Shown here: positions 21,097 to 60,570 of the stretch, piece after piece
Position numbering within the stretch: position 1 is the first letter of the stretch
Layout of the letters: every line of letters begins with the position of its first letter
Assembly (NCBI GenBank): GCA_965224245.1
Contig: OZ245046.1
Span: forward strand, 416,001 to 480,000
Direction of reading: 5' to 3'
DNA: 64,000 bases
Origin: Candidatus Eiseniibacteriota bacterium
Lineage (GTDB): Bacteria; Eisenbacteria; RBG-16-71-46; CAZAMP01
Position numbers and translations under genes: made by a program
The notes under the pieces: model-generated
What the model saw: only the letters and a program-made list of their open reading frames with translations
The model's database searches: none
What the model was told of the DNA's origin: nothing

Positions 21097-24624
<3,528 letters not shown>

Positions 24625-25062
24625 GCGGGACCCGTTCCTCACCCTCTCGGGGGTCGAGTGCGCCCGCGCACGCCGGATCGTGTCCGCGTCCGGCGCGCAG
24701 GTCTCGTCGATGATACACGGATGCGGTCGGAGAGAAAGCCGCGGGCGCCTTTCCCGGGCGGCGCCCGCGGCGGGAATCTACCGGCTCCGGGTCAACGCCG
24801 CTCGCTCCTCGGCCCGGGCTCTCGCGGCGGCCAGCCGGGCCTCTCGCGCGGCCACGGGCACCCGGAGCGCTCGAGATCGCGCAGATCCACCTCACTCGTC
24901 GTCCCGAGGTCGATGCCGTCGCCGTCGTCACCGATCCGGCGTGCCTGTCACGGGTCGAGCCGCGCCACGTCGTCGACGTCGAAATGCGGCACGGCCGGCG
25001 CTCGCGAGGCTCGGAACACGGCCCGCGACGTCCGACGGTCGCGGGCCGCTGGAGGAGCGACG

Positions 25063-28085: not shown

Positions 28086-29483
28086 ATGAACGCGCGTCGC
28101 CGGATCGACAAGCAGAAGCTCGTCATCGTCGCCAATCGCCTGCCGGTTCGGCGCTCCGGGCACGGGGCGCAGCGGCGCTGGGTGCTGAGCCCCGGAGGGC
28201 TCGTGCGGGCGCTCACGCCGGTCCTGAGGACGCGAGAGGGTGTCTGGGTCGGCTGGTGGGGTAGTGTCGGCCGCGCTCCGGAACCCTTCGACCACGACGG
28301 CATCCACCATCTGCCGGTCGGTCTCAATCGACGGGAGTTCGAGCAGTTCTACGAGGGCTTCTCCAACCGCACCATCTGGCCGCTCTACCACGATGCCGTT
28401 CGCTGGCCGGAGTTCCGGCGCGAGTGGTGGTCCGCGTACGTCGCCGTCAACGAGCGTTTCGCCGCCGCCGTGGAGCGCGTGGCCGCGCGCGGGGCCACGA
28501 TCTGGGTGCACGACTACCATCTCCAGCTCGTGCCCGGCATGCTGCGAGCGGCCCGACCGGATCTCCGGATCGGGTTCTTCCTGCACATTCCGTTTCCGCC
28601 TCAGGAGCTGTTCTCGCAGCTCCCGTGGCGCCAGCAGATTCTCGAGGGACTGATGGGCGCGAACGCCGTCGGGTTCCAGACACGCGTGGGGGCTCAGAAC
28701 TTCATCCAGCTCGCGCGTCACTACACCCCGGCGGCGAGATCCCGCACGGGCCTGACGGTCGATGGGCGCACCGTGGTGGCAGGCGACTTTCCGATCTCGA
28801 TCGACCACCGACAGTTCGAGGCGGTGGCAGCCGATCCCGAGGTCCGGGCCAAGGCGGCCGACACCCGGCGGAGGCTCGGCAACCGGCGCATCGTTCTCGG
28901 CGTCGATCGTCTGGATTACACCAAGGGGATTCACCGGCGGCTCCGTGCGTTCGACGAGCTCCTGACCGAGGGCAACGGCATATCCGCGGCGAACTGCGTG
29001 ATGGTCCAGGTTGCGGTCCCGAGCCGGGAAGAGGTCCTCCACTACGCCCAGGAGAAGCGACGCGTCGAGGAGACCGTCGGGCTCGTCAACGGGAAGCACG
29101 GACAGGTCGGACGCAGTGCGGTCCAGTACCTCCACCGCAGTCTCGACATGAAGGACCTGGTGGCGCTGTACCTGGCCGCGGACGTGATGCTGGTCACGCC
29201 GTTTCGCGACGGCATGAACCTCGTGGCCAAGGAGTTCGTGGCCACACGCCTGGACGACACCGGCGTCCTCATCCTGAGCGAGTTCACCGGCGCCGCGCAC
29301 CAGCTGAAGCGCGCGCTCCTGGTGAACCCACACGATCTCGACGGGATGCGGGGCACGCTACGCCGGGCGCTGACGATGCCGGAGCGGGACGTCAAGCGTC
29401 GCATGCGCGCGCTCCGGGCGGTGGTCCGGCGACAGGACGTCTACGAGTGGGCCAACCAGTTCCTGGACGCGCTCGAGACGTGA
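28086..29483 (+). CDS. otsA: Trehalose-6-phosphate synthase (GT20)
   Basis: VANRLP, SPGGLV, WVHDYHL, FFLHIPFP, GVDRLDYTKG, RDGMNLVAKE, SEFTGAA. Confidence 0.95.
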   Translation: MNARRRIDKQKLVIVANRLPVRRSGHGAQRRWVLSPGGLVRALTPVLRTREGVWVGWWGSVGRAPEPFDHDGIHHLPVGLNRREFEQFYEGFSNRTIWPLYHDAVRWPEFRREWWSAYVAVNERFAAAVERVAARGATIWVHDYHLQLVPGMLRAARPDLRIGFFLHIPFPPQELFSQLPWRQQILEGLMGANAVGFQTRVGAQNFIQLARHYTPAARSRTGLTVDGRTVVAGDFPISIDHRQFEAVAADPEVRAKAADTRRRLGNRRIVLGVDRLDYTKGIHRRLRAFDELLTEGNGISAANCVMVQVAVPSREEVLHYAQEKRRVEETVGLVNGKHGQVGRSAVQYLHRSLDMKDLVALYLAADVMLVTPFRDGMNLVAKEFVATRLDDTGVLILSEFTGAAHQLKRALLVNPHDLDGMRGTLRRALTMPERDVKRRMRALRAVVRRQDVYEWANQFLDALET

Positions 29484-29532
29484 GCGTGACCCTCGACGTC
29501 GGAACCCGACACCCCGGAGGCAACACCATCCG

Positions 29533-32055
29533 ATGAACGACCTGGATCGACGTCTAGAGGCGATCGCGCGCGTGCCGGTTCTGCTCGTGGCCACCGACTA
29601 CGACGGGACGCTCTCGCCGATCGTGCCGAATCCGGCCGAGGCGCGTCCCAACCGCGAGGCGATCGTGGCGCTCCGGAACCTGGCCGCGCTCGAGCAGACG
29701 CACGTGGCGGTGATCTCCGGCCGGGCGCTCGCGGACCTGGCGTCCCTGGCCGGGCTGCCGGACGAGGTACATCTGGTGGGAAGTCATGGCAGCGAGTTCG
29801 ATCCGGACTTCCTGGAGTCACTATCCGATCCGGCGCGGAGCCTTCGCGACGATCTGCGTGACCGGTTGACGGCGATCGCGCGCGCACACTCGGGGTTCCT
29901 CGTGGAGACCAAGCCGGCCAGCGTGGCGTTCCACTACCGGAACGCTCCCGACGACGTGGCCGTGCGTGCGCTCGCCGAGATCGAGGCCGGCCCCGGCCGG
30001 GCCGAGGGCGTTCACACGCGTCACGGCAAGAAGGTCGTCGAGCTGGCGGTCATGGACACCCACAAGGGGCAGGCGCTCGAGGCGCTTCGGTCCCGCGTCG
30101 GCGCCTCGGCCGTCGTGTTCCTGGGCGACGATCGCACCGACGAGGATGCGTTCGCGACGCTCAGGGGACCAGACCTCGGCGTCAAGGTGGGATCCGGCCG
30201 GACGATCGCGACCCACCGCGTGTCGGACACGACCGAGGTGGCGCGCCTGATCGCCCATCTGTCCGAGCGCCGGGCCGCATGGCTGCGCAACGAGACCGCC
30301 GACGGGATCGAGGAGCACGCGATGCTGTCCGATCAACGCACGGCGGCGCTGGTGTCGCCGGCGGGGCGTGTCGTGTGGTTCTGCGCGCCGCGGCTCGATT
30401 CGCCGGCGCTGTTCGCCCAGATCGTGGGCGATCCGAGCTCGGGCTCCTTCGCGATCGCGCCGGCCGGGGACGATCCCCCGCGTCCGACCCAGCGCTACCT
30501 GGACCGGACGATGGTTCTCGTGTCCGAGTGGCCGAGCGTGCGTGTGACCGACTTCCTGGATTGCTCCAGCACCGAGCTCAGCCAACGTACCGGTCGGGTC
30601 GACCTGATCCGCCTCGTCGAGGGCGCGGGACAGGTGTCGGTGACCTTCGCCCCGCGGCTCGACTACGGGAGAACCGCGACCGGCATCGAGGTGCACGAGG
30701 GGGGACTGATCGTCCAGAACGCGTTCGACCCGATCGTGCTGGCATCGCCGGGCGTGAGCTGGCGCGTGGAGACCGAGGGGCGGCATCAGACCGCGCGGGC
30801 CGAGATCGAGCTCCGGGACGAGCCGGTGGTGTTCGAGCTTCGCTATGGGACGCGCAGCCTGAGGGCCGACGTCCAGAAGGCGCTGCAGCGCCGCGACCGC
30901 ACGGCCCGCTTCTGGTCCTCCTGGTCCGCACGGCTCACGCTGCCCCGCACGCATCACGAGCTCGTGGAGCGGAGCGCACTCGTCCTGCGCGCGCTCTGTC
31001 ACGATCCCACCGGCGCGATCGCCGCCGCCGCCACCACGAGCCTGCCCGAGCACATCGGCGGCATCCGGAACTGGGACTATCGCTACTGCTGGCTCCGTGA
31101 CGGCGCCATGGCCGCGTCCTCGCTCGTCCGACTGGGCTCGTTGACCGAGGCGATGCGCTTTCTGGACTGGGTGCTCGGCGTGGTCGATCGCACGCCGTCA
31201 CCCGAGCGTCTGCGTCCGCTCTACACGCTCGTCGGGGGCGATCTCCCCCCCGAGGCCGAGATCGCCGAGCTGGCCGGGTACCGGGGCAGCCGCCCGGTCC
31301 GCGTCAGCAACGCGGCGGCCGGTCAGGTGCAGCTCGACGTGTTCGGTCCGGTGCTCGAGCTCATCCACCTGCTCCTGGAGCGCGACGCACCCCTCTTCGC
31401 CGAGCACTGGCGTCTGGCCGAGGCGCTGGTGGAGGCGGTGGCGAAGCGCTGGCAGGAGCCGGATCACGGCATCTGGGAGTTCCGCACCACGCCCCGGCAC
31501 TACGTGCACTCCAAGGCGATGTGCTGGCTCGCGGTGGACCGCGGCGCACGTCTGGCCGAGCTGTTCGCCGGACGGCGCCGTCCGGACTGGGAGGCGCTCC
31601 GCGATGCGATCGCCTCGGACGTGGAGGCGAACGCGTGGAACGAGGAGCGAGGCGCCTACACCATCGCCTACGGCTCGCGGGATCTGGACGCGTCGGTGCT
31701 GCTCGTGGGGCTCACCGGTCTGGTTCCGCCGGATCATCCGCGCTTCGTGGCGACCGTGCACGCGATCGAGCGGGAGCTCCGGCGCGGTCCGGTCGTGTAC
31801 CGGTACGATCTGGACGACGGGCTTCCGGGTGTCGAGGGCGGCTTCCACATCTGCACGTCGTGGCTCGTCGAGGCGTACCTGGCCATGGGCCGGCGTTCCG
31901 ACGCCGAGGCGCTGATGGACCGGATGTGCGAGCTGGCGGGCCCGACCGGCCTCATGTCCGAGCAGTACGGGTCGCGATCGCGCCGGGCGCTCGGCAATCA
32001 TCCACAGGCGTTCTCGCACATCGGGGTCGTCGAGGCCGCGTTGCGGCTGGGCTGA
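29533..32055 (+). CDS. otsB: Trehalose-6-phosphate phosphatase (HAD) fused to a GH15 glycoside hydrolase
   Basis: N-terminal DYDGTL, SGR, GDDRTDEDAF; C-terminal AATTSLPE--GG-RNWDYRYCWLRD, DHGIWE, LGNHPQAFSH. Confidence 0.9.
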   Translation: MNDLDRRLEAIARVPVLLVATDYDGTLSPIVPNPAEARPNREAIVALRNLAALEQTHVAVISGRALADLASLAGLPDEVHLVGSHGSEFDPDFLESLSDPARSLRDDLRDRLTAIARAHSGFLVETKPASVAFHYRNAPDDVAVRALAEIEAGPGRAEGVHTRHGKKVVELAVMDTHKGQALEALRSRVGASAVVFLGDDRTDEDAFATLRGPDLGVKVGSGRTIATHRVSDTTEVARLIAHLSERRAAWLRNETADGIEEHAMLSDQRTAALVSPAGRVVWFCAPRLDSPALFAQIVGDPSSGSFAIAPAGDDPPRPTQRYLDRTMVLVSEWPSVRVTDFLDCSSTELSQRTGRVDLIRLVEGAGQVSVTFAPRLDYGRTATGIEVHEGGLIVQNAFDPIVLASPGVSWRVETEGRHQTARAEIELRDEPVVFELRYGTRSLRADVQKALQRRDRTARFWSSWSARLTLPRTHHELVERSALVLRALCHDPTGAIAAAATTSLPEHIGGIRNWDYRYCWLRDGAMAASSLVRLGSLTEAMRFLDWVLGVVDRTPSPERLRPLYTLVGGDLPPEAEIAELAGYRGSRPVRVSNAAAGQVQLDVFGPVLELIHLLLERDAPLFAEHWRLAEALVEAVAKRWQEPDHGIWEFRTTPRHYVHSKAMCWLAVDRGARLAELFAGRRRPDWEALRDAIASDVEANAWNEERGAYTIAYGSRDLDASVLLVGLTGLVPPDHPRFVATVHAIERELRRGPVVYRYDLDDGLPGVEGGFHICTSWLVEAYLAMGRRSDAEALMDRMCELAGPTGLMSEQYGSRSRRALGNHPQAFSHIGVVEAALRLG

Positions 32056-32067: not shown

Positions 32068-33339
32068 TCACTTCTGATGGCACTGGATGCACAGGTCCAT
32101 CGCGGGATCCTTCGGCAGGTACTTCTCGAAGTCGGCGCCGTGGAGCTGGTGGCAGCTCAGGCAGGTGACCGGCGATCCGTTGCGCGGGTCGATCACGTCG
32201 GGGCCCACGGGATGAGACGTTCGATGCGCACCTTCGTGGCATCGCGCACACAGGTCCACGTCGAGCGTGCGCAGATACCTCGGATTCGCGGCTCCGTGCG
32301 GCGAGTGACACTCGCTGCACGCGACACCCGGATGCGTCATCATGTCGCTCGCCTTCCCGGAGGTGGTGGCGGTCGTCGCGGCATCACCGGCGCGAGGGGC
32401 GTCGAAGTGACACTTCGTGCAGAGGGTGCTCTGGCTCGCGGCCAGGAGATCGCTCACGGCTGACGTGTGCGGGTTGTGACAGTTCTGGCACGATCGCTCG
32501 AGGTCGAGATGACCGTGGAACGGCTCGTCGAGCGACGCCCGGATGCCCGTATGACACGTTGTGCAGAGCTCGGTGATGTCGGAGGTGACGGCGAAGGTGT
32601 CGTCGTCACGAGCCGGGCCATGGCATCCCGCGCAGTTGCCTGCCGCGAAGGGCTCGTGCTGATTCGGCCGGAGAAGACCGGATTCCGACGAGGCGTGGGG
32701 ATCGTGGCAGGCGGCGCAGTTCGCGCTCGCGAGGTTGCGCCCGTCGTGAGCCACCACGAAGCCGTCGTCGGCGTCGTGACAGTCGAGGCAGACCGCGGAC
32801 ACCCGATCCCGAAGCAGGCTCGGCTCGCCGCTCCCGTGGGGTGCGTGGCATCCGGTGCAATCCCCGTCGTCGACCGGCGGGTGCACGACCGCCGATGCGA
32901 GCCAGGCCCCGACCTGCGTGTGACAGTCGGCGCAGAGCGTGGGAGGGGCCTCGCGCAAGAGCGCCGCCCGGTCGGCCGCGTGGGGCTCGTGGCACGCCGT
33001 GCACTGACCGTGGGACGCCGGGGCGTGCACCGATTTCCGAGACAGCGACTCCGCCACGTCGTCGTGACAGCCCGTGCACAGCTCCGCCTGGTTCCTCGCG
33101 AGAAGCGCCGCGTGCCGCGAGGCGTGTGGGTTGTGACAGCCCGAGCACGTGCCGTCTCCGAACGGCGCGTGGACGTGAACTCCGTTCCGCGCCTGGTCGA
33201 TCGAGGAGTGACACTCGAGGCAGACCGTGGGCTCGTTCACGGGGGCCAGGCCCGACTGGGCCGCGGCGCTCGGCTCTGCGCCGGCGACCACGAGCACGCC
33301 GATCCCGACCAGTCGGATCCATCCGCGACGAAACCTCAT
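32068..33339 (-). CDS. Multiheme c-type cytochrome, 16 CXXCH
   Basis: ATG 33339 (ATGA overlap); signal peptide; 16 CXXCH counted, in paired H-x-P...CxxCHxPH...LL...CxxCH units. Confidence 0.92.
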   Translation of the reverse strand: MRFRRGWIRLVGIGVLVVAGAEPSAAAQSGLAPVNEPTVCLECHSSIDQARNGVHVHAPFGDGTCSGCHNPHASRHAALLARNQAELCTGCHDDVAESLSRKSVHAPASHGQCTACHEPHAADRAALLREAPPTLCADCHTQVGAWLASAVVHPPVDDGDCTGCHAPHGSGEPSLLRDRVSAVCLDCHDADDGFVVAHDGRNLASANCAACHDPHASSESGLLRPNQHEPFAAGNCAGCHGPARDDDTFAVTSDITELCTTCHTGIRASLDEPFHGHLDLERSCQNCHNPHTSAVSDLLAASQSTLCTKCHFDAPRAGDAATTATTSGKASDMMTHPGVACSECHSPHGAANPRYLRTLDVDLCARCHEGAHRTSHPVGPDVIDPRNGSPVTCLSCHQLHGADFEKYLPKDPAMDLCIQCHQK

Positions 33340-35354
33340 CGGGAGCCTCCCTCTGCCCCCGTCGGGCGATGGCACGACTCGCAGGATCCGCTCTCGAACG
33401 GCTCGTGCGTGAGGGTCTGGAACAGGCTCTCCGACGCGGACGCGTGCGGATCGTGGCACGCGCGGCAATCCAGTACCGATCCCGGCTGACCCATGTGAGC
33501 GGCCCGGAACCCGTCGTCGTCGCCGTCGTGACAGTCCAGGCATTGATCGGGAATGGCCTCGACCAGAAGCGAGGGCTCGGGGCTCCGGTGCGGCTGGTGG
33601 CAGGCGAGGCAGTCGCCGTCCTCCGCCGGGGCGTGTCGATGGGCCGCGTCCATGTGAGCCTCGAGATCCCCGTGACAGTTGAAGCACAGGCGCCGGGGCT
33701 CGTCCAGGAGGAGCGATGCGATGCGGCTCGTGTGCGGCTGATGGCAATCGGTGCAGGCGCCGTCGCCGAACGGGGCATGGGTCGTGCCGCCCGTGCCGGA
33801 GTCGGCGGCGTCGAGATCGTCGTGGCAGCCTCCGCACAGCTCGCGCTGGGTGCTGGCCAGAAGCCCGTCGTGTCGGGAGGCGTGAGGTTCGTGACACGAG
33901 TCACATTCGGAGTCTCCGAATGGAACGTGCACCTCGGTGACGGTCTCGTCCTCGACCAGCGACGCATGACACGTCATGCAGATCTCGTTGCGGTCCTCTC
34001 GCAGGAGCGAGGCGCGCTCGCCGGCATGGGGCGAGTGGCACGCCGTGCACCGGCCGATCTTGACCGGGACGTGCGTGACCTTGTCGGCGAGCCAGTCGTC
34101 GGCATCGTCGTGACACACCGCGCAGAGCTCGTAGCCGTTCGTGCGCGTCAGCTTCGGGTGGTCCGATCCGTGCGGCGTATGGCAGTCGAGACAGTCTCCG
34201 GCCTCGAACGGCGGATGCACCAGGGAGGCCTCGGTCTCGTGGCGCTGGTCGTCGTGACAGCCGAGGCACAACTCGCCCACGTCGCCGGCGATCAGCTTTC
34301 GTGACGCCTGGCCGTGCGCGTCGTGGCAGGCCAGGCAGTCCTCGCGGGCCGGGGGATGTCGGGAGGACCTGTCCAGCTCGGCGGGGAGATCGTCGTGACA
34401 GTCCACGCAGAGATCGCGCGCGGGTGCCCGTAGTAGCGCGAGCCGGCTCGAGCCGTGGGGTGAGTGGCAATCGAGGCACATCCCGTCGGCCACCGGATCG
34501 TGGGTGCCCGGGGGCGCAACGTCGGTCTCGTCGTGGCACTCGAGGCAGATGGCATTGGGTTCGCCCTCCGCCAGTGCGAACGGCTCGGCCCCGTCGGGAG
34601 CGCCATGGCACATCTCGCAGTCTCCGCTCGACACCGGATCGTGAATCGATCGCGTGAAGAGCTCGGGAGTCGGCGACGAGTGGGGCGCGTGGCAGATCGC
34701 GCAGTCCCGATCCGCAACGGGATAGCCGGCGTGAGCGTCCACGAACGACGAGGAGGACAGCTCGTGGCAGCTCGCGCAGAGTGCGTCCTGCTCGCTGACG
34801 AGAAGACCCGGGTGCTGGCCGCTGTGAACCTCGTGACACGAGAAGCAGCCGTTCTCCAGCGGGGCATGGCGATGCGCCGCCGAGAACGGCTCGCGCTCGT
34901 GACACCCGAAGCACAGCTGCTCGACGTCGGCGACGAGGAGCCCCTCCTGATCGCTCGCGTGTGGATCGTGGCAGGCGCCACAGTCGCCGTCGGCCACCGG
35001 TGCGTGGACGACCGGTGCGTCGAGGTCGACCGATTCCGCGTGGCAACGCGCGCACAGGGCGGCGCCGTCGTCGAGAAGACGGAGCGCCCCCACGAGCCCG
35101 TGCGGCTTGTGACAGGCCTTGCACTCGTTGTCCGCGACGGGTCGGTGGCGATGCCGGCCCTCGAACTCCTTCGGGTCGTGGCACTTCTGGCAGGAGCCGG
35201 AGGACGAGAAGCGGCGTCCCTTCTCGATCTGGGCCGACGCGCCGAGCGGCGTCGCGAGCAGCACGGCGAGCGCGAGCAGCCCGCCGGTCGTCGCACGTGC
35301 GAGCCACTCGACCGATCGCGTCCGGTGCGTCTGTCGCTTCTCGAGTTCGATCAT
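33336..35354 (-). CDS. Multiheme c-type cytochrome, 26 CXXCH
   Basis: Signal peptide ending ASA-Q; 26 CXXCH counted, same paired-heme repeat. Confidence 0.92.
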   Translation of the reverse strand: MIELEKRQTHRTRSVEWLARATTGGLLALAVLLATPLGASAQIEKGRRFSSSGSCQKCHDPKEFEGRHRHRPVADNECKACHKPHGLVGALRLLDDGAALCARCHAESVDLDAPVVHAPVADGDCGACHDPHASDQEGLLVADVEQLCFGCHEREPFSAAHRHAPLENGCFSCHEVHSGQHPGLLVSEQDALCASCHELSSSSFVDAHAGYPVADRDCAICHAPHSSPTPELFTRSIHDPVSSGDCEMCHGAPDGAEPFALAEGEPNAICLECHDETDVAPPGTHDPVADGMCLDCHSPHGSSRLALLRAPARDLCVDCHDDLPAELDRSSRHPPAREDCLACHDAHGQASRKLIAGDVGELCLGCHDDQRHETEASLVHPPFEAGDCLDCHTPHGSDHPKLTRTNGYELCAVCHDDADDWLADKVTHVPVKIGRCTACHSPHAGERASLLREDRNEICMTCHASLVEDETVTEVHVPFGDSECDSCHEPHASRHDGLLASTQRELCGGCHDDLDAADSGTGGTTHAPFGDGACTDCHQPHTSRIASLLLDEPRRLCFNCHGDLEAHMDAAHRHAPAEDGDCLACHQPHRSPEPSLLVEAIPDQCLDCHDGDDDGFRAAHMGQPGSVLDCRACHDPHASASESLFQTLTHEPFESGSCESCHRPTGAEGGSR

Positions 35355-35370: not shown

Positions 35371-37068
35371 TCACGATTTGTCGCCGAGATAGGCCGTGAT
35401 CGCCGCCTCGTCGATCACGATCTCCGAGCGCTCACGCAGGAGGTCGAGGTGCCGGTCGAGCGCTTCGTTGAACTTCCGCCGGAACATGACCTGCCGGATC
35501 GGCATCTCGACGTCGTCCAGAGCCTTCACCCGCCCCGGTCGCTTGCCGAGCACCTTGAACACGAGCCATCCGTGATCCACGTCCAGCGCATCGCTGGTCC
35601 CACCGACGGGGAGTCGCGCGATCTCGTCCCGGATCGCGTCGGAGAAGAGGGACTCGGACACCCACCTGGGCTCGGACTGCAGCCCCTCGGTCTCCGAGCT
35701 CACGTACTGGCGCTCGACGTACGAGAAGTCGGCGCCGTCTCGCAGACGCGCCGCGATCTCGCGGGCCTCCTCCTCGAAGTCGGTCGTGATCGTAGCCAGT
35801 TGGACCTCGTCGCCCTCGCGAAAGTCGTCCTGGTGAGACTCGTAATACTCCTGGAACTCCTGCCGGTTGAACACGATCTTCGAGGCCACGGTCTCCTGGA
35901 GGTAGCTCTCGATCAGCGCCTGCTCGAGGTCGCGCTCGTAGAGCTCCACGATCTCGGGCACGTCCATGAAACCCGCCTCCTCGGCGGCCCGCGCGAGGAC
36001 GAGGTCCTCGGTCAGGTCGTCGATCGTGGCCCGGAGGTGTGTCGCGAACGGGATCCGGGAGTCGGCGAGCGCCTGGTGTGCCACCGCCGCCCGGAGCTCG
36101 GTCTCGGTCACGCCCTCACCGTTCTCGAAGCCCAGCGCGACGTCGTCCGATCCGCGTCGGAACTCCCCCAGGAGCACCCGGCCGGAGTCGGCGGCCACGC
36201 GCTCGAGCACGGGGGTCGAGCGCGTCACCGGAAAGCGGGTTCGATGCTCGTCCACGTACGCCGTCCAGCGGGCCTTGCCGCTCTCGGACTCCAGGTACTT
36301 CCGGATGCCCGGTGAGATGCTCTCGTACTCGTCCTCGTCGATGGGGTGCCGTTCGTCCACCCGCACGATGGAGTGGAGCGTGTTGTACGGGAACGGCTCG
36401 GAGATGTCGCCGGTGTCGAGGCCGGCGACCGCGTCCTTGACCACGGTCTCGACGTCGGCCCAGGGCTTCAGCTGGTGCCGGCCGCCGCGATAGCGGAAGC
36501 TGTCCCGCGAGCGCTCGACGGCCAGGCTGTCCCACGAGGCGCCGCGCACGAGCATGTCTCGGAGCTCGCGCGCCTCGGCCTCGGTGTCCACCGAGAGCTG
36601 GCTCAGCTGGATCTTCCAGAAGTACCGCTCGAAGCGCTCGCGGACCGCCGCCTCCGCGACCGGATCGGGAGGCGTCCACGTCGCGCGGACGTAGGCCCGG
36701 ACCGCGTTCCGCTGGCGTCGGTCCTGAACCGGCCCGACCACGCGCTCGTCGAGGTCGAGCTCGGTGGCCAGGGCCTGCTGCACGAGCAGCCGGTCGTTGA
36801 TGGCCTTGGTCAGCAGGCGGCTGAAGTCGAAGTCCCCCTGCCGAGTCATGTCCTCGGTGGCGTGCATCGCCATGATGGCCGAGTCGAGCATGGCGGTCGT
36901 GATCGAATCGCCGTTGACGATGGCGAGCGTGACGGGTTCGGAGGGTGTCACCCCGGGCGCGGCGGCCGGTGCGCCGGACGAGGGCGGGTCGTCGGCCCGA
37001 ACGTTCGAGGCCAGCACGACCAGGATGCCGGCCGCCGCCAGCGCCCCGCGGAGATCAAGGTGTGTCAT
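35371..37068 (-). CDS. SurA/PpiC-type peptidyl-prolyl isomerase chaperone with two parvulin domains
   Basis: LAIVNGDSIT; GASWDSLAVERS-D...GG; ISEPF; second domain GADF...GGTSD. Confidence 0.85.
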   Translation of the reverse strand: MTHLDLRGALAAAGILVVLASNVRADDPPSSGAPAAAPGVTPSEPVTLAIVNGDSITTAMLDSAIMAMHATEDMTRQGDFDFSRLLTKAINDRLLVQQALATELDLDERVVGPVQDRRQRNAVRAYVRATWTPPDPVAEAAVRERFERYFWKIQLSQLSVDTEAEARELRDMLVRGASWDSLAVERSRDSFRYRGGRHQLKPWADVETVVKDAVAGLDTGDISEPFPYNTLHSIVRVDERHPIDEDEYESISPGIRKYLESESGKARWTAYVDEHRTRFPVTRSTPVLERVAADSGRVLLGEFRRGSDDVALGFENGEGVTETELRAAVAHQALADSRIPFATHLRATIDDLTEDLVLARAAEEAGFMDVPEIVELYERDLEQALIESYLQETVASKIVFNRQEFQEYYESHQDDFREGDEVQLATITTDFEEEAREIAARLRDGADFSYVERQYVSSETEGLQSEPRWVSESLFSDAIRDEIARLPVGGTSDALDVDHGWLVFKVLGKRPGRVKALDDVEMPIRQVMFRRKFNEALDRHLDLLRERSEIVIDEAAITAYLGDKS

Positions 37069-38143
37069 GTCGTGCCCTTTCCACGTGCATCACGATGCCG
37101 CGCACGATCTCGGCGGCCGAGGCCGCGGCCAGTCCACCCAGCGAGTGGCACCGCCCGAGCTGAAGGATTTTGTCGGAGTCACCCCCGTCACGTGAATCGT
37201 GGAAGGCCGAAACGACCTTGCCGGTCTCCGCATCGATCAGCCGGGCGCCGACCTCGAGCTCCGGCACCGACAGGGTCGGCTCACCGCGCGCCGGCTCGCA
37301 GCGCTCGACGGTGCCGGTCACGACGTACGCCAGGGCGAGATCGCCGTGGACGCTGGCCAAACCCGGGTAGTCGACGGCGCCACGGGCGGAATGGCGCCCG
37401 CTCAGGAGGATCTCGGACAGATAGCCGGGCTCGAGGACGGTGAGCCCGGCGCTCACGAGCGCCGAGGTGAGGGGCCCGGCGAACAGGCCGGCCCCGGCCG
37501 GATGCTCGGAGGCGTCGTCGAAGGCGATAACGCCCACGAGGGCGTTCGTCTTCGGGCCGTTCCGCAACTGGGTCCGCAGCGCGTCGCGGAGGCCGTCGAC
37601 CGCGCGTGACACGACGCGTTCGGCCACCGCCTCCACGTCGTCGATGCGTCCCGCGCCGAAGGCTCCGGCGAAGTCCTCGCCGGTGGCCGCCGTGCTGGCC
37701 GCCCAGGCCAGGAGACCCGTCTCCGGATCCAGCACCCGCAGCGAGATGGCCACGTCGGGGTTGGCACCGCCTTCGAAGACGTCGACCGACCCCAGGAGCA
37801 GCCGGGAGACGCCGGTCTCGTCCGCCAGCAGGCGGGCGCCGGTCGGTCCGATCCGGCCGAGGCTCCGGATCCGATGGCGCCTGAGGATCGGCCTGAGCGC
37901 CTCGTCCGACAGGAACGCGATGCCGGTGCGGGTCAGCTCGCGCCGGAGGTCGGCCATCACGACCGTGAGCGCGTCGCTCGTACCCGCATGGTTGGCGAAG
38001 GGGACGATGGCGATCTCCGCCGGCACGGAGACGTCCGGGGGCACGCCGCCGTCGGCAGCGGTCGCCCGTCCGAGCGCCGGGGCAAGGATGGCCAGGAGCG
38101 CGGCCAGCGCGCCCGTTCGCATGTAGGCTCGGAGGTGATCCAT
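37055..38143 (-). CDS. Secreted protein with two CsgG/GNA1162-like domains
   Basis: IAIVPFAN...VAISLRVLDPETG; VGVIAFDD...ARLIDAETGKVV. Confidence 0.7.
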   Translation of the reverse strand: MDHLRAYMRTGALAALLAILAPALGRATAADGGVPPDVSVPAEIAIVPFANHAGTSDALTVVMADLRRELTRTGIAFLSDEALRPILRRHRIRSLGRIGPTGARLLADETGVSRLLLGSVDVFEGGANPDVAISLRVLDPETGLLAWAASTAATGEDFAGAFGAGRIDDVEAVAERVVSRAVDGLRDALRTQLRNGPKTNALVGVIAFDDASEHPAGAGLFAGPLTSALVSAGLTVLEPGYLSEILLSGRHSARGAVDYPGLASVHGDLALAYVVTGTVERCEPARGEPTLSVPELEVGARLIDAETGKVVSAFHDSRDGGDSDKILQLGRCHSLGGLAAASAAEIVRGIVMHVERARHDTP

Positions 38144-38150: not shown

Positions 38151-38741
38151 TCAGTTCACGAGTGTTCCGACGCACTTCTCGACGCAGCGGCGCGTGACCT
38201 CGCCGATCGACGGAGTTCCGGTGCCGAACAGTGATGACCAGAAGCCCCGCCCGCCTTCGGTGTGGGTCGTGGACCACACGGTCTGGCCGGTATCGGTCTC
38301 GATCATGCGCAGCGAGATCGTCACATAGTTGGACGAGGCGGATCCGGAGCGAACGGTCGCCGACTCGCCGATCGAGCCGACGAACAGGCCCTGGGCGCGC
38401 AGCTCCTTGCCGACCGCCTTGGCCTGCTCCTCGGTGATCTGCGCCCCGTCGAGGACGCCGTTGGCCGACAGGGCACGGGTCACCTCGCCGGGCTCGACCA
38501 CGTCGAACGCCTCGGTGGCCAGGAGCTCGGACACGAGATAGCGTGTCGCCCGGGCACCTGCCCCCTGATCACCCGTGAGGTTCTCGATCGAGACCACCGC
38601 CACCCGCTCCACGTAGTCGAAGTTGAAGCTCGGGTGCACGAACGTCGTCGCTCCCATGCCCGCACATCCAGCCAGGACTCCGGCCAGGACTCCGGCCAGG
38701 ATCGGCCGCGCGAGTCGAGTGTCCGAGGTCTTCCGTCTCAC
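38151..38741 (-). CDS. CsgG/GNA1162-like lipoprotein
   Basis: Lipobox LAGC; RVAVVSIENLT; FDVVEPGEV; SLRMIETDTGQTVWS. Confidence 0.8.
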   Translation of the reverse strand: MRRKTSDTRLARPILAGVLAGVLAGCAGMGATTFVHPSFNFDYVERVAVVSIENLTGDQGAGARATRYLVSELLATEAFDVVEPGEVTRALSANGVLDGAQITEEQAKAVGKELRAQGLFVGSIGESATVRSGSASSNYVTISLRMIETDTGQTVWSTTHTEGGRGFWSSLFGTGTPSIGEVTRRCVEKCVGTLVN

Positions 38742-38756: not shown

Positions 38757-40859
38757 CTAGAAGACAATCCGGAACCCCTGCTGGAACGACACGGTCGACG
38801 TGCCGCCGACGGCGGTCTGGTCCAGGTCGACGATGCCGGCATAGAGGCTCCCGCGTGATCCCATTCCGTACGTCGTCTGGAGGCTGTAGCGCTCCGATCG
38901 CGTGCGGCCGTCCGATGTGTTGATCTGAGCCTGTGCGTTCATGCTCACCCGGGGGCTCAGGCTCCAGGCCACGAGGACGTCCCGGACGACGTCACGGCGC
39001 GTGTCGTCGGTGACGTTCAGTGACGCCCGGGAGAGTATCGTCCGCGTGAGGCGTAGGTCGAGCCCCACGCGCATCGTCGTCCGCGTGCGGACGAGGTCGT
39101 CGGACGCCCGGGTCGTCCGCTGGCGCAGCACGGAGGCATCGAGATTCAGGTCTCGCCGGAGCGCGGCGCTTCCGCCCACGCGAAACGTCCACGAATCGAG
39201 TCGCCGCGAGCCGGCGTAGTCGTGATCACGCGATCGCGCGACGTCAGCCACCATGTCCAGCCCCGTGACCGGTGTCCCCGACAGCTGGAGGCTCGCGGTG
39301 TTGTTCTCCTCCACCTTCGTGTGGTCGATGAGGCCGTGCCGGCTGCGCAGCGACATCTTCGCCCGCGCGGTCGGCAGCGGATCGACCTCGGCGGTGTAGG
39401 TCGCGGCGTGCGTCGACTGAGCCACGCGGTCGGTCCCCAGCCCGCGAAAGTCCTGCTCCCAGCGCAGCGTGTGCCGGACGATCTCGGACGGCTCGTAGAC
39501 TCCCCAGGTCGTGTAGGCGTAGTCGTCCCGGGACGCGCGTCCCACCGATGGCACGTGCCGGTACGCCGTGTCGAGCGAGAGCGTGACCGCATCGGACGCC
39601 GTGTACCGGAGACGCGCATCGGCCTGGTGGGCGTTCAGCACGTGCTCGACCGGGTCGCCGCTCCCCAGCTCCTCGAACGCCGTCACCTCGGTCACGTAGA
39701 CGGTCTCGACGACGTTGAAGCCGCCGCTGACGACCTTCACATACCGCGTCTCGACCGCGGGGAACACGATCTCGTAGCGGTTCTGGGTCGCGTTGAACAG
39801 GGTGCCGGGGAGCCCGTCCACCAGCCGCCACGAGAGGTTGTCGGCCGAGACGAAGACGCGCCAGCTGACGCCGTCACCCGATGCACGATCGGTGTAGACG
39901 TACACCGCGGCGACCCGCTGCGCGAGCCCGAGATCGACGCCGAGGTTCCGGTCGAGAGCGTCACCGCCGACGTCGATCGGGGGAGAGGTCGGCGCGTCGG
40001 TCATGCCGTCGACGAGCCCGGAGACCGTGTCGAGCGATCCGAGCTCCGGGGACGCGTCCAGGGCGTACACCCCGCGGCCGGCCGACAGCGGCACGAGGAT
40101 GACGTCGCCCGAGATCGTCTCGTCGCGGCGCCGCGTGTGCTGGTGCGTGTAGCTCCAGCTGACCCGCATGCGGTCTCTCGCGACCGGGGCCGGACGTGCG
40201 TCCCAGCGCAGGATGGACTCGAGCCGGCTGGTCCGGGCATCGGTCACCACGTTGTCCGAGCGCCGGTGCTCGAGCTGAGCGGTGATCGACTGTCGGCGGG
40301 ACACGTGATCGATGGCGCCGAGCAGCCGTCGTTCGCGCGTGTCTCGCTCGGAGGCCGCGCGATCGAAGGCCCGGCTGGCGTCGTAGCGGAGCGTCAGGAT
40401 GGGGCGCGTCTCGGCTCGGGTGCGCAGGAAGATCGACCAGTCGTCGTTGGTCACGTTCTGTGCCGCGTCGAGGGCGGTGGCCTGGCGTCGTCGCGCGTTG
40501 GCGTTCAACGTGAATCGGGGATGCGTCCAGATGATCTCGCCGCTCGGCTGGGCGTCCTCCCGCCAGAAGGTCGAGGACTCGACGTCGCGCAGGCCGAAGC
40601 GAAAGTAGGTGATGCCGAGTCGGACCTTCAGACGCGGATCGACCTGGCGGTGCCAGGCGAGCCGATGCTGCTGGCGAACGCTGGAGCGGGACTGGCCGTC
40701 GATGTCGGTCTGGACCGCCGAGACGTCGACGCTGCCGCTGAGGTTGCCCGCCGCGACGACGGGTCCCGCCGCGATCGCGAGAACGAATCCGCCGGCGAGG
40801 GCCACTGATCGCGCCGGCCGTGCCGCGCGCGACCGGGCTCGAGACCGTGGGGTACGCAT
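38757..40859 (-). CDS. Outer-membrane beta-barrel protein with an inserted discoidin (F5/8-C)-like domain
   Basis: Alternating amphipathic strands; ends QGFRIVF (aromatic C-terminus); internal LVDG...GVDLG...VSADNLSW...TRYVKV; start uncertain. Confidence 0.7.
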   Translation of the reverse strand: MRTPRSRARSRAARPARSVALAGGFVLAIAAGPVVAAGNLSGSVDVSAVQTDIDGQSRSSVRQQHRLAWHRQVDPRLKVRLGITYFRFGLRDVESSTFWREDAQPSGEIIWTHPRFTLNANARRRQATALDAAQNVTNDDWSIFLRTRAETRPILTLRYDASRAFDRAASERDTRERRLLGAIDHVSRRQSITAQLEHRRSDNVVTDARTSRLESILRWDARPAPVARDRMRVSWSYTHQHTRRRDETISGDVILVPLSAGRGVYALDASPELGSLDTVSGLVDGMTDAPTSPPIDVGGDALDRNLGVDLGLAQRVAAVYVYTDRASGDGVSWRVFVSADNLSWRLVDGLPGTLFNATQNRYEIVFPAVETRYVKVVSGGFNVVETVYVTEVTAFEELGSGDPVEHVLNAHQADARLRYTASDAVTLSLDTAYRHVPSVGRASRDDYAYTTWGVYEPSEIVRHTLRWEQDFRGLGTDRVAQSTHAATYTAEVDPLPTARAKMSLRSRHGLIDHTKVEENNTASLQLSGTPVTGLDMVADVARSRDHDYAGSRRLDSWTFRVGGSAALRRDLNLDASVLRQRTTRASDDLVRTRTTMRVGLDLRLTRTILSRASLNVTDDTRRDVVRDVLVAWSLSPRVSMNAQAQINTSDGRTRSERYSLQTTYGMGSRGSLYAGIVDLDQTAVGGTSTVSFQQGFRIVF

Positions 40860-41061: not shown

Positions 41062-42138
41062 TCAGCCCGCGAGGCCGGCGATGCGCGGCGGCGGCGGGGT
41101 GAAGTCGATCAGGGCGTCGCCCTCATCCTTGTTGTGACACTTGTTGCACAGCGAGCGCTGATAGACCGAGTACGGGTTCGGGATCTTGTAGGAGCCCGAC
41201 TCGTGCCCGTCTTCTTCGAGACCGGTCACGTTGAAATCCCAGCGACCCGCGTTGGGCGCCGAGGTTGCATGTGCCCGGTGGCACGTGATGCACGAGACCT
41301 GACTGCCGGCGGACGGCCCTGCGGTCGATCCGACGGCGGCGGTGGCGTCTTCGAACGGGACCGCGGCGAGATACGCCGTGGCCTGAACGCCCCCGAGCTG
41401 GTCGTCGGTGCCGTTGTACAGGTTGTACGTGCTGGCGATGGTCCCACCAACCGGTTCACCCGCGGGGTGAATGAGCTCGGCGCTCTGGTGGTAGTCGCCG
41501 TGGCAGTTCGCGCACCAGCCGCTCATACCGCCCCTGTAGGCCGTATGATTGCTGTTCGACTCGCCGGCCCCGAAGAGGCTGAGCCCATCGGCGTCGGGAG
41601 CCGCCATCGTGAACGTGTACAGCCCGTCCTGGACGGACCCCGGACCGTAGAGCAGCCGGAAGTTCGCGTTGCCGTGAGGATCATGGCAGCTCGAGCATCC
41701 GAGCTCGCTCGACGGGAAGGTCCCGCCGGGCGCCATGCCCAGGACCGGATCGGCCCCGACGCCCTTGGACGGCGCGACCACGCTGTGTCCGGCCGCATGG
41801 CCGAGGATCGGCTCGCTGGCGCCGCCGTGACCGTCGTTGATGTTGTCTTCGAGGAGGAACGTGAAGTTGCCGGCGCCCCGCTCTGTCGCGGGAGCCAGCG
41901 GGTCGTCCACGAAGACCGCACCGAGGCCGTTTGCGTGACAGCCCAGACAGACGTCACTGGGAGTGGCGGCCTTGAGAAGCCAAGCGTGTGGCCCCGCAGG
42001 GTCTACCGGAGCTCCGTCTTCGCTGTTGTGCATCGTGTGGCAGCCGTTGCAGTGAGCCACACCTTCATCGTGGAAGGCGAGCACAGGCGACGCGCACACG
42101 ACGCTCACGCCGAGTGCGACGAGAACAGCCCTGCGCAT
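41062..42138 (-). CDS. omcS: OmcS-family hexaheme cytochrome (nanowire-type)
   Basis: GGAGG RBS; mature N-terminus FHDEGVAHCNGCHTMHN; APGGTFP--LGCSSCHDPHG; GMSGWCANCH; CITCHRAHA; QRSLCNKCH-KD; 6 CXXCH, colinear with recalled Geobacter OmcS. Confidence 0.88.
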   Translation of the reverse strand: MRRAVLVALGVSVVCASPVLAFHDEGVAHCNGCHTMHNSEDGAPVDPAGPHAWLLKAATPSDVCLGCHANGLGAVFVDDPLAPATERGAGNFTFLLEDNINDGHGGASEPILGHAAGHSVVAPSKGVGADPVLGMAPGGTFPSSELGCSSCHDPHGNANFRLLYGPGSVQDGLYTFTMAAPDADGLSLFGAGESNSNHTAYRGGMSGWCANCHGDYHQSAELIHPAGEPVGGTIASTYNLYNGTDDQLGGVQATAYLAAVPFEDATAAVGSTAGPSAGSQVSCITCHRAHATSAPNAGRWDFNVTGLEEDGHESGSYKIPNPYSVYQRSLCNKCHNKDEGDALIDFTPPPPRIAGLAG

Positions 42139-42232: not shown

Positions 42233-43324
42233 CTACCCGTGCGGCTCGGCTGGACCGAGCGGGGTGATGGTCGTCGTGTGGCTTTCCGGGCCACTGTTCT
42301 CCGGGTGAAGATCGGTCCTGACGAAATCGGGGAGACGGCAGATCTCGACCTTGCTTCGGAACACCTGGCCGACGTAGACGCGGCCCCGACCGTCGGCACC
42401 CAGGAGGCTCGGGTAGTAATACCAGCCGGGGCTGATCCCCCGTCCGCCGAACTCACCGCGAAACCGGCCACCGCGGTCGAAGCAGACGACGGTGAACCGG
42501 TTGCGGTCGAGGACGAGCACGAGATCGCCCCCGGTGACGGTCACATCGACCGGGAAGTTGAGCGAGCCGATCTCGGTACCCTTGGAGCCGACGCTGCGCC
42601 GGAACGTGCCGTCGCGCTCGTAGACGAACACGGTGCCGAGGGACGCCGCCGGCAGCCAGACGAGGTCGTCGTGCACCGAGAGCGAGCCGAGGACGGCCTT
42701 GCGGTCGACGACGTCGCCGGTCGCGTCCCGAACCGGGAAGTCGTCCACGAGACGACCGGATGGCTCGTGCTGCGAGATGCGCGGACCGCTCCGGTCGAGG
42801 ACGAAGAGATGCACACCGTCGTGCGCGATGCTCGCGGGCACGATCGGCTCGGCGCCGGGCTCGAGGACGACCTCGTCGATGAACGTCCCATCGAAGTCGA
42901 ACCGGAACACGCGCGGACCCGACTCCGTGGATCCGAGGACAAAAATGTAGCCCTCCACGTCGACGGCCACGTCGAGCGGAGCGGCGAAGCGGTCGCGACC
43001 GTCGAACTCGTACTTGTAGGTGCCGTCCACGTCGAAGATCGTGATCCGGTTGCGACCCGCATCGGCTACGAACACCTCGTCGTGGGTGCGGTCCACGAAG
43101 AGCGCCGACGGACGGACGAAGAGATTCTCGACGCCCGGCGGGTCCAGGCGGTCGATCAGCTCCGCGGGCCGGGACCGGGTATCTGCAAGGGTCGACCCCG
43201 CCGCCGAGCAGACGAGTCCGCCGGCGAGAAGGACGAGGACGGCACTCCGTTCCGGTCGCCGGTGGGAGGCGATCGGAAGCCGGGCCTCGGCGTTGTGAGT
43301 CGATCCGGTGTTAGGCACGGGCAA
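42233..43324 (-). CDS. NHL-repeat six-bladed beta-propeller protein
   Basis: VFVADAGRNRI, PLDVAVD, LNFPVDV, GGRG--PGWYYYP; hydrophobic signal; start uncertain. Confidence 0.85.
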   Translation of the reverse strand: MPVPNTGSTHNAEARLPIASHRRPERSAVLVLLAGGLVCSAAGSTLADTRSRPAELIDRLDPPGVENLFVRPSALFVDRTHDEVFVADAGRNRITIFDVDGTYKYEFDGRDRFAAPLDVAVDVEGYIFVLGSTESGPRVFRFDFDGTFIDEVVLEPGAEPIVPASIAHDGVHLFVLDRSGPRISQHEPSGRLVDDFPVRDATGDVVDRKAVLGSLSVHDDLVWLPAASLGTVFVYERDGTFRRSVGSKGTEIGSLNFPVDVTVTGGDLVLVLDRNRFTVVCFDRGGRFRGEFGGRGISPGWYYYPSLLGADGRGRVYVGQVFRSKVEICRLPDFVRTDLHPENSGPESHTTTITPLGPAEPHG

Positions 43325-43706: not shown

Positions 43707-43740
43707 AAAAAGAGAGGACGCCGGGTCACGGCGTCCTCTC
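43707..43740 (-). terminator. Intrinsic terminator of the 43765-44691 gene
   Basis: Perfect 12-bp stem GAGAGGACGCCG/CGGCGTCCTCTC followed by TTTTT on the minus strand. Confidence 0.85.
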
Positions 43741-43764: not shown

Positions 43765-44691
43765 TCAGCGATACAGCGACTTGATCCGGCTCCAGCTTCG
43801 GTCGAGCGTCGGCGTCGACGAGTCGCAGTCGTACGGTCCGCTGAGACCGTTGTTGAACTCGTCGAAGATCTCGGTCAGCGCACTCGTCACGGCTGGCTCG
43901 AGGAACCCCGTGCCGATCGGGGGCACGACGAGGTCGCCGATCAGCGCGTCCGCTTCCGCGAGCGCGTCGAGGACCGAGGCCGCGTTCGCGCCGTTCTCGA
44001 TGTTCAGCCGCGTCGCGATGAGCTGGTGCGCGAGCGACACGAGACCGTTGCCCTCCACCGGCTGGTGCAAGATGTCGTTGAGCTCGGCCAGGTTGTAGAG
44101 GACGTTGCCGAGCATGATGACGTTGGTCGGCCAGTTCTCGAGGTGGTTCTTCCAGTAGCCCTGCGTGAACACGCACTCGTCGTCCGTGCCCACGGCGAGC
44201 GTCGCCTTGTACAAGGTGGGGCCCTTGGCGCTCGGATCCCACGCGCCGCCGCCGTTGGCGAAGATCGTGAAGACGTAGTCCGTGCCGTAGCCGAGCTCTC
44301 GCCAGTCGTTCGCGATCACGCCGGTCTCGTCGGCGATGTCACCCAGCTGAATGGTGATGGACTCACCGGGGGCCAGCAGGAACGTCTCCGGCTCGCCCGG
44401 AAACGCGTTCAGCGTCGGGCTTCCGTAGTAGTGCACGAGGTGCTGACTGATCGACTCCGGAGTCCACAGCTCGCCGTCGGAGAGGAAATCCGCTTCGGTG
44501 GCCCACAAGACGGTGAACCCATTCGGTGCACCGGTGGCTCCGGCGGTCACGAGAAACTCCGCGCGACCCTTGCCCGGCTCCACGAACCGCAACGTCGGGG
44601 TGTCCACCTCGATGGCGGAAGCCGTGCCGGCGAACAACGTGGCAGTCGAGGCAAGTCCGATGCAGAACGCGGCAGTGCGTCGGCGATGCAT
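43765..44691 (-). CDS. Secreted hypothetical protein with TQGYWKNH motif and C-terminal SWSRIKSLY motif
   Basis: GGAGGA RBS; signal ending ASA-I; CVFTQGYWKNH; LAHQLIATRLN; ends PTLDRSWSRIKSLYR. Confidence 0.8.
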   Translation of the reverse strand: MHRRRTAAFCIGLASTATLFAGTASAIEVDTPTLRFVEPGKGRAEFLVTAGATGAPNGFTVLWATEADFLSDGELWTPESISQHLVHYYGSPTLNAFPGEPETFLLAPGESITIQLGDIADETGVIANDWRELGYGTDYVFTIFANGGGAWDPSAKGPTLYKATLAVGTDDECVFTQGYWKNHLENWPTNVIMLGNVLYNLAELNDILHQPVEGNGLVSLAHQLIATRLNIENGANAASVLDALAEADALIGDLVVPPIGTGFLEPAVTSALTEIFDEFNNGLSGPYDCDSSTPTLDRSWSRIKSLYR

Positions 44692-46223: not shown

Positions 46224-46309
46224 GGAGGGATGGCCGAGCGGCTTAAGGCGGCGGTCTTGAAAACCGCTGTGCGAAAGCACCGTGGGTTCGAATCCCACTC
46301 CCTCCGCCA
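46224..46309 (+). tRNA. tRNA-Ser(TGA)
   Basis: GGAGGGA/TCCCTCC acceptor, anticodon loop CTTGAAA, long variable arm, GTTCGAATC, encoded CCA. Confidence 0.95.
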
Positions 46310-46391
46310 TTGCCTCCCGTCGGGTGTGGCCCCGTCGCAACCTTCTTGCCCTGCCCCCTCGATTGACGTAGGCTTCTCGCCCGGCAATCGG

Positions 46392-46481
46392 GGAGCGGTG
46401 ACCGAGCGGCTGAAGGTGGCACCCTGCTAAGGTGTTGTGCGGGAAACCGTACCGAGGGTTCGAATCCCTCCCGCTCCGCCA
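46392..46481 (+). tRNA. tRNA-Ser(GCT)
   Basis: GGAGCGG/CCGCTCC acceptor, loop CTGCTAA, variable arm, CCA. Confidence 0.95.
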
Positions 46482-46506
46482 TCACCCGGGCCGAGGGCAT
46501 TGGGAC

Positions 46507-46583
46507 GCGCCCATAGCTCAATTGGATAGAGCGTCTGGCTACGGACCAGAAGGTTGGGGGTTCAAGTCCTCCTGGGCGTACCA
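46507..46583 (+). tRNA. tRNA-Arg(ACG)
   Basis: GCGCCCA/TGGGCGT acceptor, loop CTACGGA, GTTCAAGTC, CCA. Confidence 0.95.
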
Positions 46584-46631
46584 TCTCGAACATCATCGTC
46601 CGCGGCGCCGCGCGGTGCCGCCGGAGTCCGC

Positions 46632-46660
46632 GGCCCCGCCTCCAGGTCGGGGCCTTTTTT
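46632..46660 (+). terminator. Intrinsic terminator after tRNA-Arg
   Basis: GGCCCCG...CGGGGCC stem followed by TTTTTT. Confidence 0.8.
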
Positions 46661-46770
46661 GTGGTCACGTGCATGCCCGGCCGATCCAACGACGGCTGTC
46701 GATCGGTCGGACGTGGCCGAACCCGCGTGCGTCCCGGGACGCCGAGGACGCGCCGACCAATCGAGGCATC

Positions 46771-47439
<669 letters not shown>

Positions 47440-59995: not shown

Positions 59996-60570
59996 CGCGC
60001 GCGTTCACGGCGATCTTCCCGCCGGCGCCGGTGCGCGAGAAGCTGGCGCGGTTCGTGGCCTCGCTGGAGCGCGAGGGTGGCGACGTCAAATGGGTCAGGC
60101 CGGAGAACCTCCACCTCACGCTCCGCTTCTTCGGAGACCTGGAGGACGATGCGCTCGAGCGTGCCCAGCAGGTGACGCGCGAGATCGTGAGCTCGTTCGC
60201 CCCGTTCCGGGTCCGGCTGGCCGGTACCGGGACGTTCCCGGCGCGGGGACGTCCGAGGGTGTACTGGGTCGGCATCGATCGAGGGGTCGACGACCTGGAT
60301 CTTCTGGCGGGAGCCCTCGATCGCGGCTACCGGAGCGCCGGCCTGGGCAAGGCCGACAAGGCGTTTGCGCCACACCTGACCGTCGGACGCGCACGACCGC
60401 CGAGGGGACGCCGCCAGCCCGTCCCCCAGAAGCTCTGGACGTTCGGTCGTTTGACTTTCGAATCGCTCGAGTTTACAGTGCCGAGCGTGTGCGTGGTAGC
60501 CAGCGAGCTCTCGCCACGCGGCCCCACCTACGAGCCCCTAGCGGAGTTCCCGATGTCCGGGCACGGCTGA
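59992..60570 (+). CDS. thpR: RNA 2',3'-cyclic phosphodiesterase (2H family)
   Basis: HLTL and HLTV motifs; KWVRPEN; cinA-thpR-recA synteny. Confidence 0.9.

Follow-up and report, generated by a model that had tools for sequence, protein, structure and literature searches.

The window, a 64,000-nucleotide stretch of DNA from a Candidatus Eiseniibacteriota bacterium, carries on its minus strand a gene for a hexaheme c-type cytochrome of the OmcS family, here called the window hexaheme, in a row of genes for a propeller, a barrel, lipoprotein and secreted components, a PPIase, and two larger cytochromes:

43712..43740, minus strand: terminator-like hairpin, 12 pairs plus T-run, closing the upstream gene for a 308-aa protein
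42233..43324, minus strand: NHL/6-bladed β-propeller, first gene of the cluster (NHL 1.9e-7, DUF5128)
41062..42138, minus strand: OmcS-family hexaheme c-type cytochrome precursor, 358 aa plus stop (ORF, SD GGAGGTG, OmcS homology)
42076..42138, minus strand: putative Sec signal peptide, residues 1-21, with predicted cleavage between ...VLA and FHD (A/FHD junction common to the listed homologues)
42028..42030, minus strand: codon (cac) of His37, which is mature His16 (translation; conserved in 75/80 aligned rows)
41065..41124, minus strand: C-terminal tail EGDALIDFTPPPPRIAGLAG, residues 339-358, absent from OmcS (translation and OmcS alignment)
38757..40859, minus strand: predicted outer-membrane β-barrel of about 28 strands with an inserted discoidin-like domain, 700 aa (F5_F8_type_C_2; AF2 pLDDT 88.1)
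38151..38741, minus strand: LpoB/CsgG-like lipoprotein, lipobox LAGC (LpoB 4.9e-7, CsgG 5.5e-5; colinear in related loci)
37055..38143, minus strand: secreted 362-aa protein, CsgG/FlgO/LpoB-like by language-model features only (no Pfam match; colinear in related loci)
35371..37068, minus strand: SurA-like protein with two PpiC-type PPIase domains, OscH equivalent (Rotamase_2 6.1e-23)
33336..35354, minus strand: 26-heme c-type cytochrome, OscI equivalent (26 CxxCH motifs)
32068..33339, minus strand: 16-heme c-type cytochrome (16 CxxCH motifs; colinear in related loci)

The coordinates 41062 to 42138 given for the hexaheme gene in the initial annotation are correct, and the strand is minus. As judged from the ORF and by inspection of the sequence, the ATG lies six bases 3' of GGAGGTG; a longer frame starting from a GTG at 42471 was rejected, the homologues starting like MRRAILIALG.... 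The translation contains six CxxCH motifs (CNGCH, CLGCH, CSSCH, CANCH, CITCH, and CNKCH). In both the sequence and the structure alignment, residue 1 of the OmcS chain pairs with F22 of the window hexaheme, and the mature N-terminus following ...SPVLA reads FHDEGVAHCNGCHTMH; the start proposed earlier, F1-H-D-E-G-V-A-H-C-N-G-C-H-T-M-H16, is identical to this translation. The C-terminus reads ...CHNKDEGDALIDFTPPPPRIAGLAG, also given as ...CNKCHNKDEGDALIDFTPPPPRIAGLAG, and its Pro-rich tail of 20 residues begins beyond the point where OmcS ends. Both the 358-aa precursor and a Pro-rich tail after the last heme had been claimed, and both are present in the translation.

A phmmer search against all PDB chains returned 6ef8_A (OmcS, 407 residues) with an E value of 5.8e-40 and 141 bits, the next match lying at E 3.2. 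The alignment spans OmcS residues 1-407 in three stretches, and the six CxxCH motifs of the window hexaheme are colinear with those of OmcS. Pfam and NCBIfam gave generic multiheme matches only (e.g., Paired_CXXCH_1), with no OmcS-specific model matched. The AF2 model of the window hexaheme, built on 132 aligned family members and without hemes, displayed a mean pLDDT of 89.6 and a pTM of 0.85. With this model, Foldseek found 6ef8_A as the sole match at E<=0.001 (E 1.7e-18, TMq 0.74), and VIA-align superposed model residues 22-338 on 6ef8_A chain residues 1-407 with a Z score of 30.4 and an rmsd of 2.2 Å over 310 aligned residues; identity to OmcS in the structural alignments ranges from 29% (Foldseek) to 40% (VIA-align). 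Since 310 of the 317 core residues superpose on OmcS, nearly the whole mature core is matched, OmcS having about 90 extra loop residues. By sequence and by predicted fold, the window hexaheme is thus homologous to OmcS, as the initial annotation had proposed. A predicted complex of two copies of residues 22-358 with four hemes, run without controls, gave ipSAE values of 0.00 and 0.00 and a mark of 0.42, which weighs neither for nor against binding.

Ligand conservation was followed in an alignment of the window hexaheme with 79 full-length representatives clustered at 50% identity (80 rows in total). Exactly six non-motif histidines are conserved, all of them present in the window hexaheme: in mature numbering, H2 (78/80 rows), H16 (75/80), and H97, H134, H203, and H269 (80/80 each). 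A seventh non-motif histidine, H196, occurs in 39/80 rows only. By our own count in the phmmer alignment, the six conserved residues align with OmcS H2, H16, H110, H147, H257, and H335, and the OmcS histidine numbering is consistent with this alignment. All six are kept in 118 of the 119 closest database proteins (the best 119 of 4,259), and His16 is kept in all 119. A check of the distal ligands, suggested along with the claim that His16 is retained, found all six conserved histidines and none missing, with His16 aligned to OmcS H16. As far as the alignment can tell, the window hexaheme possesses the six distal histidines that bis-His ligation of its six hemes would call for, including His16 on the N-terminal arm. 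In OmcS, the trans ligand is reportedly His16, paired with His332 on heme 5, and mature His16 of the window hexaheme is presumably the equivalent of this position, which ligates a heme of the neighboring subunit. With six distal histidines for six hemes, an OmcS-like geometry, if true, would leave one heme in need of a ligand in trans. Because His16 is kept across the family, its retention is not a distinguishing mark. For OmcS, a preprint gives 12 axial histidine ligands, of which the neighboring subunit contributes one and the protein's own chain the other 11.

The mature protein is shorter than OmcS in every inter-heme segment. Counted from first Cys to first Cys, the spacings are 34 residues versus 38 in OmcS for hemes 1-2 (4 shorter), 84 versus 93 for hemes 2-3 (9 shorter), 61 versus 99 for hemes 3-4 (38 shorter), 74 versus 89 for hemes 4-5 (15 shorter), and 48 versus 72 for hemes 5-6 (24 shorter), which amounts to 90 residues over all five segments. 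The largest single loss follows DPHG after heme 3, where the alignment jumps from query residue 158 to 164 and from OmcS residue 150 to 194. It sits exactly where the initial annotation had placed a missing loop; this part of the claim stands, but the absent 38-residue loop is not the sole shortening, the four other segments being reduced as well. After the last motif, 23 residues follow in the window hexaheme versus 3 in OmcS. The loss of 90 loop residues, offset by the 20-residue-longer tail, therefore leaves 337 mature residues versus 407 in OmcS.

A homologue search over 5.8 billion clusters, in which 8,000 candidates were scored, yielded among these 4,259 proteins at E<=1e-5. The closest 119 of the 4,259 (query excluded) are 63-77% identical to the window hexaheme and all 325-398 aa long; the sources named among them are Eisenbacteria, Gemmatimonadota, Acidobacteriota, Zixibacteria, and Delongbacteria, i.e., several phyla, mostly uncultured. 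Across 75 six-heme full-length representatives, the heme 3-4 spacing is bimodal, 12 being compact (62-71) and 63 long (85-121). The compact form is very common, and both compactness and retention of His16 are family norms; with all 119 closest proteins in this length range and 118 of them keeping the six histidines, the suggestion that these two traits make the window hexaheme special did not hold up. The tail is far more variable than the core, with a mean identity of the 119 close matches to the window hexaheme of 18% versus 71%. Tail lengths in the compact class range from 3 to 36 residues (median 11), and the tail stretch PPPPRIAGLAG has no matching conserved counterpart among the close matches. 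The window hexaheme has 56 residues per heme, and the compact clade as a whole about 53-56. With about 90 loop residues gone, a wire thinner than that of OmcS is plausible, as judged from the sequence; the greater heme exposure proposed in the initial annotation finds no support.

A FastTree phylogeny of 99 full-length family members, midpoint rooted and with SH-like support only, splits the family into clades of 36 and 63 rows, each with a support of 99. The 36-row clade comprises the window hexaheme together with rows from Krumholzibacteriota, Acidobacteriota, Ignavibacteriota, Fibrobacterota, Zixibacteria, Gemmatimonadota, and Eisenbacteria; the 63-row clade comprises Thermodesulfobacteriota, Nitrospirota, and Myxococcota. 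Every Geobacteraceae row, both Geomonas paralogues among them, belongs to one 50-row subclade with a support of 100. The window hexaheme is separated from every Geobacteraceae row by a branch with 99% support, and its distance from OmcS is likewise considerable (141 bits versus 439 and 406 for the Geomonas paralogues); both findings count against reading it as a filament subunit. Given its position in the tree, it is no strict orthologue of OmcS, and, within the limits of a quick, unrooted tree, it would lie outside the Geobacter-type duplications. The compact clade mixes phyla; one node, for instance, joins a row from Fibrobacteraceae with one from Krumholzibacteriota, each about 0.1 substitutions per site away from it. 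Of 151 genomes sampled within the phylum of the window, 8, counting that of the window itself, held a match at E<=1e-20; one has an orthologue of 67% identity, and the only other genome from the window's family (97% complete) had no match at this threshold. Such patchy occurrence fits horizontal spread or frequent loss.

The genome of the window carries a second OmcS-family gene (C1:3740080-3741093; locus coordinates 11997-13139, minus strand), whose product is 53% identical. Its product has an additional CxxCH motif (CMWCH), the seventh, placed 17 residues beyond the sixth. It keeps all six distal histidines and has no osc genes nearby. A kinase-propeller fusion (locus coordinates 13646-16702) adjoins this seven-heme paralogue, and a heme-biosynthesis operon with HemA-, HemC/D-, HemB-, HemL-, and HemE-type domains follows about 1.8 kb downstream of the paralogue, in the same orientation.

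For comparison of gene neighborhoods, 78 related loci from GTDB genomes were collected, 52 of them with at least 8 kb downstream of the hexaheme. The NHL propeller lies directly upstream of the hexaheme in 31 of the 78. Among the 52, the downstream block is present with at least four of five genes in the same order in 21 and with at least two in 31. When the comparison is confined to the 18 loci with at least 48% identity and at least 8 kb downstream, the full colinear block is found in 12; stand-alone paralogues are among the six exceptions, as are two loci (L015 and L029) where the block is rearranged. Across the 13 syntenic compact loci, no cluster gene is better conserved than the hexaheme, whose median identity to the window is 63%, the other genes reaching 30-51% (lipoprotein 51%, 26-heme cytochrome 47%, 16-heme cytochrome 40%, NHL propeller 38%, PPIase 35%, and barrel and 362-aa protein 30% each). 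In the Geomonas silvestris locus, a propeller precedes two hexahemes (with 439 and 406 bits to OmcS), which are followed in turn by a YNCE propeller, a protein of 762 aa, an LpoB-like lipoprotein, a protein of 388 aa, and a PPIase; from the gene order, we infer that the YNCE-like propeller is OscD.

In the window, the hexaheme is followed by barrel and secretion genes, a PpiC-type PPIase (OscH), and a cytochrome with about 26 hemes (OscI). Taken together with the osc gene names given in the papers on Geobacter, this gene order, which matches that of the Geomonas silvestris locus, identifies an osc-type cluster, and the presence of such an assembly cluster around the hexaheme favors a filament role. 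The upstream edge of the cluster is marked by the hairpin at 43712-43740, since it closes an unrelated gene. The 700-aa barrel is the equivalent of the 762-aa gene in the Geomonas osc locus; in its AF2 model, 11 and 17 long strands flank the discoidin-like insert, and the chain ends in Phe. Foldseek matched the barrel model to TonB receptors, MtrB, and pilus ushers, all with a TM of 0.36 or less, and homology to MtrB or to ushers was not accepted, these being generic large-barrel matches only. In the Protein Atlas, the barrel fell into "hypothetical protein" clusters only. The discoidin- or F5-F8 type C-like domain sits between strands 11 and 12 of the approximately 28, and it holds most of the residues that are invariant in a 25-sequence alignment (W333, S338, D340, W344, and K375). 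At the downstream end, the start of the 16-heme gene overlaps the stop of the 26-heme gene (ATGA, 33336-33339), an arrangement of translational coupling; a frame from 32068 to 33897, considered as a frameshifted continuation of the 26-heme gene, was rejected, the 16-heme gene having its own start and a signal-like N-terminus. The hexaheme is the sole one in this operon. Among sequencing runs, four DNA runs of a single study were listed as carrying the sequence, and no RNA run. Two absences count against the filament-subunit reading: no terminator lies 3' of the hexaheme that would set the subunit apart in expression, and no OscD-like propeller stands between hexaheme and barrel in the window.

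Several other genes of the window were recorded. The gene upstream of the cluster (43765-44691, minus strand) encodes a secreted 308-aa protein with no Pfam match and no counterpart in the 78 related loci, and is closed by a 12-bp GC-rich terminator hairpin. Four tRNA genes lie at 46224-47311 (plus strand), overlapped by a probably spurious 291-aa ORF without a Pfam match (46243-47118, minus strand). The RecA ORF (60090-61763, plus strand) comprises 557 aa with the RecA domain beginning at residue 191, pointing either to a long N-terminal extension or to a start called too far upstream. Finally, an 1,181-aa protein combining a Ser/Thr kinase, a STAND/NB-ARC-like NTPase, and TPR repeats is encoded at 21097-24642 (minus strand), and at 28086-32055 (plus strand) the gene for a GT20 trehalose-6-phosphate synthase precedes one whose product fuses trehalose phosphatase with a trehalase-like N-terminal domain and a GH15 domain.

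Considering homology, ligand conservation, and gene context together, we regard it as reasonably probable that the window gene encodes the filament subunit of an osc-type system, i.e., a Sec-exported compact OmcS-family cytochrome with six bis-His hemes that would polymerize head to tail. The hexaheme would be exported by Sec and matured with six hemes, and its folding would be aided by the periplasmic PPIase. The barrel, the LpoB/CsgG-like lipoprotein, and the second CsgG/LpoB-like protein would serve export or anchoring, the hexaheme being passed to or through the barrel-lipoprotein assembly. Exported subunits would then stack head to tail, with His16 on the N-terminal arm closing the bis-His coordination of one heme of the following subunit, and the 26-heme and 16-heme cytochromes would probably feed electrons into what would be a continuous heme chain for extracellular electron transfer.

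Alternatively, the window hexaheme might be a non-polymerizing carrier, a periplasmic or surface monomer or small oligomer that together with the barrel and the 26- and 16-heme cytochromes would form a porin-cytochrome-like conduit with no long wire. The barrel model does match MtrB of the Mtr porin-cytochrome complex (6r2q_B, E 1.5e-9, TMq 0.33); against a conduit of this kind, the hexaheme is the sole candidate subunit in an operon which papers link to nanowire assembly. According to the literature on Geobacter, wire formation in this genus is known for OmcS itself alone, and no function is known for the paralogues OmcT, OscC, and OmcJ; OscC (GSU2501) also appears as periplasmic in the table of one paper. 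Both points support a carrier and count against a filament subunit. The authors also suggest that the osc block may have been secretory before wires arose. Also counting against a carrier are the near invariance of His16 (119/119 close matches) and of the whole N-terminal arm, and a complement of only six distal histidines, for which an OmcS-like geometry would demand the trans ligand. On balance, we consider it unlikely. That the filament or conduit serves mainly for electron uptake, through oxidation of Fe(II) or of a syntrophic partner, and not for reduction of an external acceptor appears improbable, because the characterized relative OmcS serves metal-oxide reduction according to the literature, even though nothing in the sequence sets the direction and a Krumholzibacteria genome from an iron-fed reactor enrichment is described as holding OmcS-like and Cyc2 iron-oxidase genes together, with the direction left open.

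Should the filament-subunit reading be correct and compact-class proteins polymerize, the physiology of a number of little-known, mostly uncultured phyla would include cytochrome wires, Eisenbacteria, Zixibacteria, Krumholzibacteria, Ignavibacteria, Fibrobacteria, Acidobacteriota, and Gemmatimonadota being among them, and the 317-residue core would represent the minimum protein to hold an OmcS-type heme chain, which would be useful for engineering conductive protein materials. A bolder proposal can be put forward only tentatively: the compact clade may constitute a separate, minimal version of the OmcS wire, divided by a well-supported split from every Geobacter-type paralogue, with its whole mature surface unusually strongly constrained (71% mean identity across several phyla), and would spread horizontally along with its own barrel and PPIase operon. 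In soil and sediment lineages that are uncultured and not known for electroactivity, it would form a slimmer filament in which the lost loops alter surface chemistry or bundling. The window gene itself is credible but unsurprising, and by itself opens no new question. It was reported already that OmcS homologues are widespread (present in diverse bacteria), that the osc machinery exists ("widespread and ancient" in the title of Shen et al. 2025, as cited), and that Krumholzibacteria possess OmcS-like genes; the window gene is one more well-supported example. Among the matches listed for literature on OmcS and these phyla, a set that does not cover Shen et al. 2025, the compact class as such was not described.

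The closest characterized system is OmcS itself (GSU2504, Geobacter sulfurreducens, PDB 6EF8/6NEF), a hexaheme nanowire subunit that has the mature start FH..GVA.C.GCHTMH in common with the window hexaheme and whose neighboring genes are of the same type. The filament has been demonstrated for OmcS; for the window hexaheme and the compact class, it is a prediction. The Geobacter operon has been named osc and linked to the folding, secretion, and morphology of OmcS in two papers, which assign folding to OscH, secretion to OscE/F/G, and morphology to OscD and describe OscI (GSU2495) as a multiheme cytochrome. OscC of Geobacter, as presented in these sources, is an OmcS-like hexaheme directly upstream of the osc block, the same slot as that of the window hexaheme, and in some Geobacter genomes it is the sole hexaheme at the block, as the window hexaheme is in the window; the authors suggest that OscC is perhaps ancestral to OmcS. 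The window hexaheme also directly follows a propeller, as the first of the two hexahemes does in the Geomonas locus. Because it fits both slots, position alone cannot decide between orthology to OscC and to OmcS. A more distant parallel is OmcE (G. sulfurreducens, PDB 7TFS), a tetraheme cytochrome of another fold and family, to which no sequence homology was found and the window hexaheme model has only a weak structural match (Z 4.1). A large outer-membrane barrel and a propeller lipoprotein are encoded near OmcE, following the same operon logic as the window cluster. With a chain of 202 residues, OmcE has about 50 residues per heme, compared with 56 in the window hexaheme, yet it is described as well insulated, so that fewer residues per heme need not expose the hemes.
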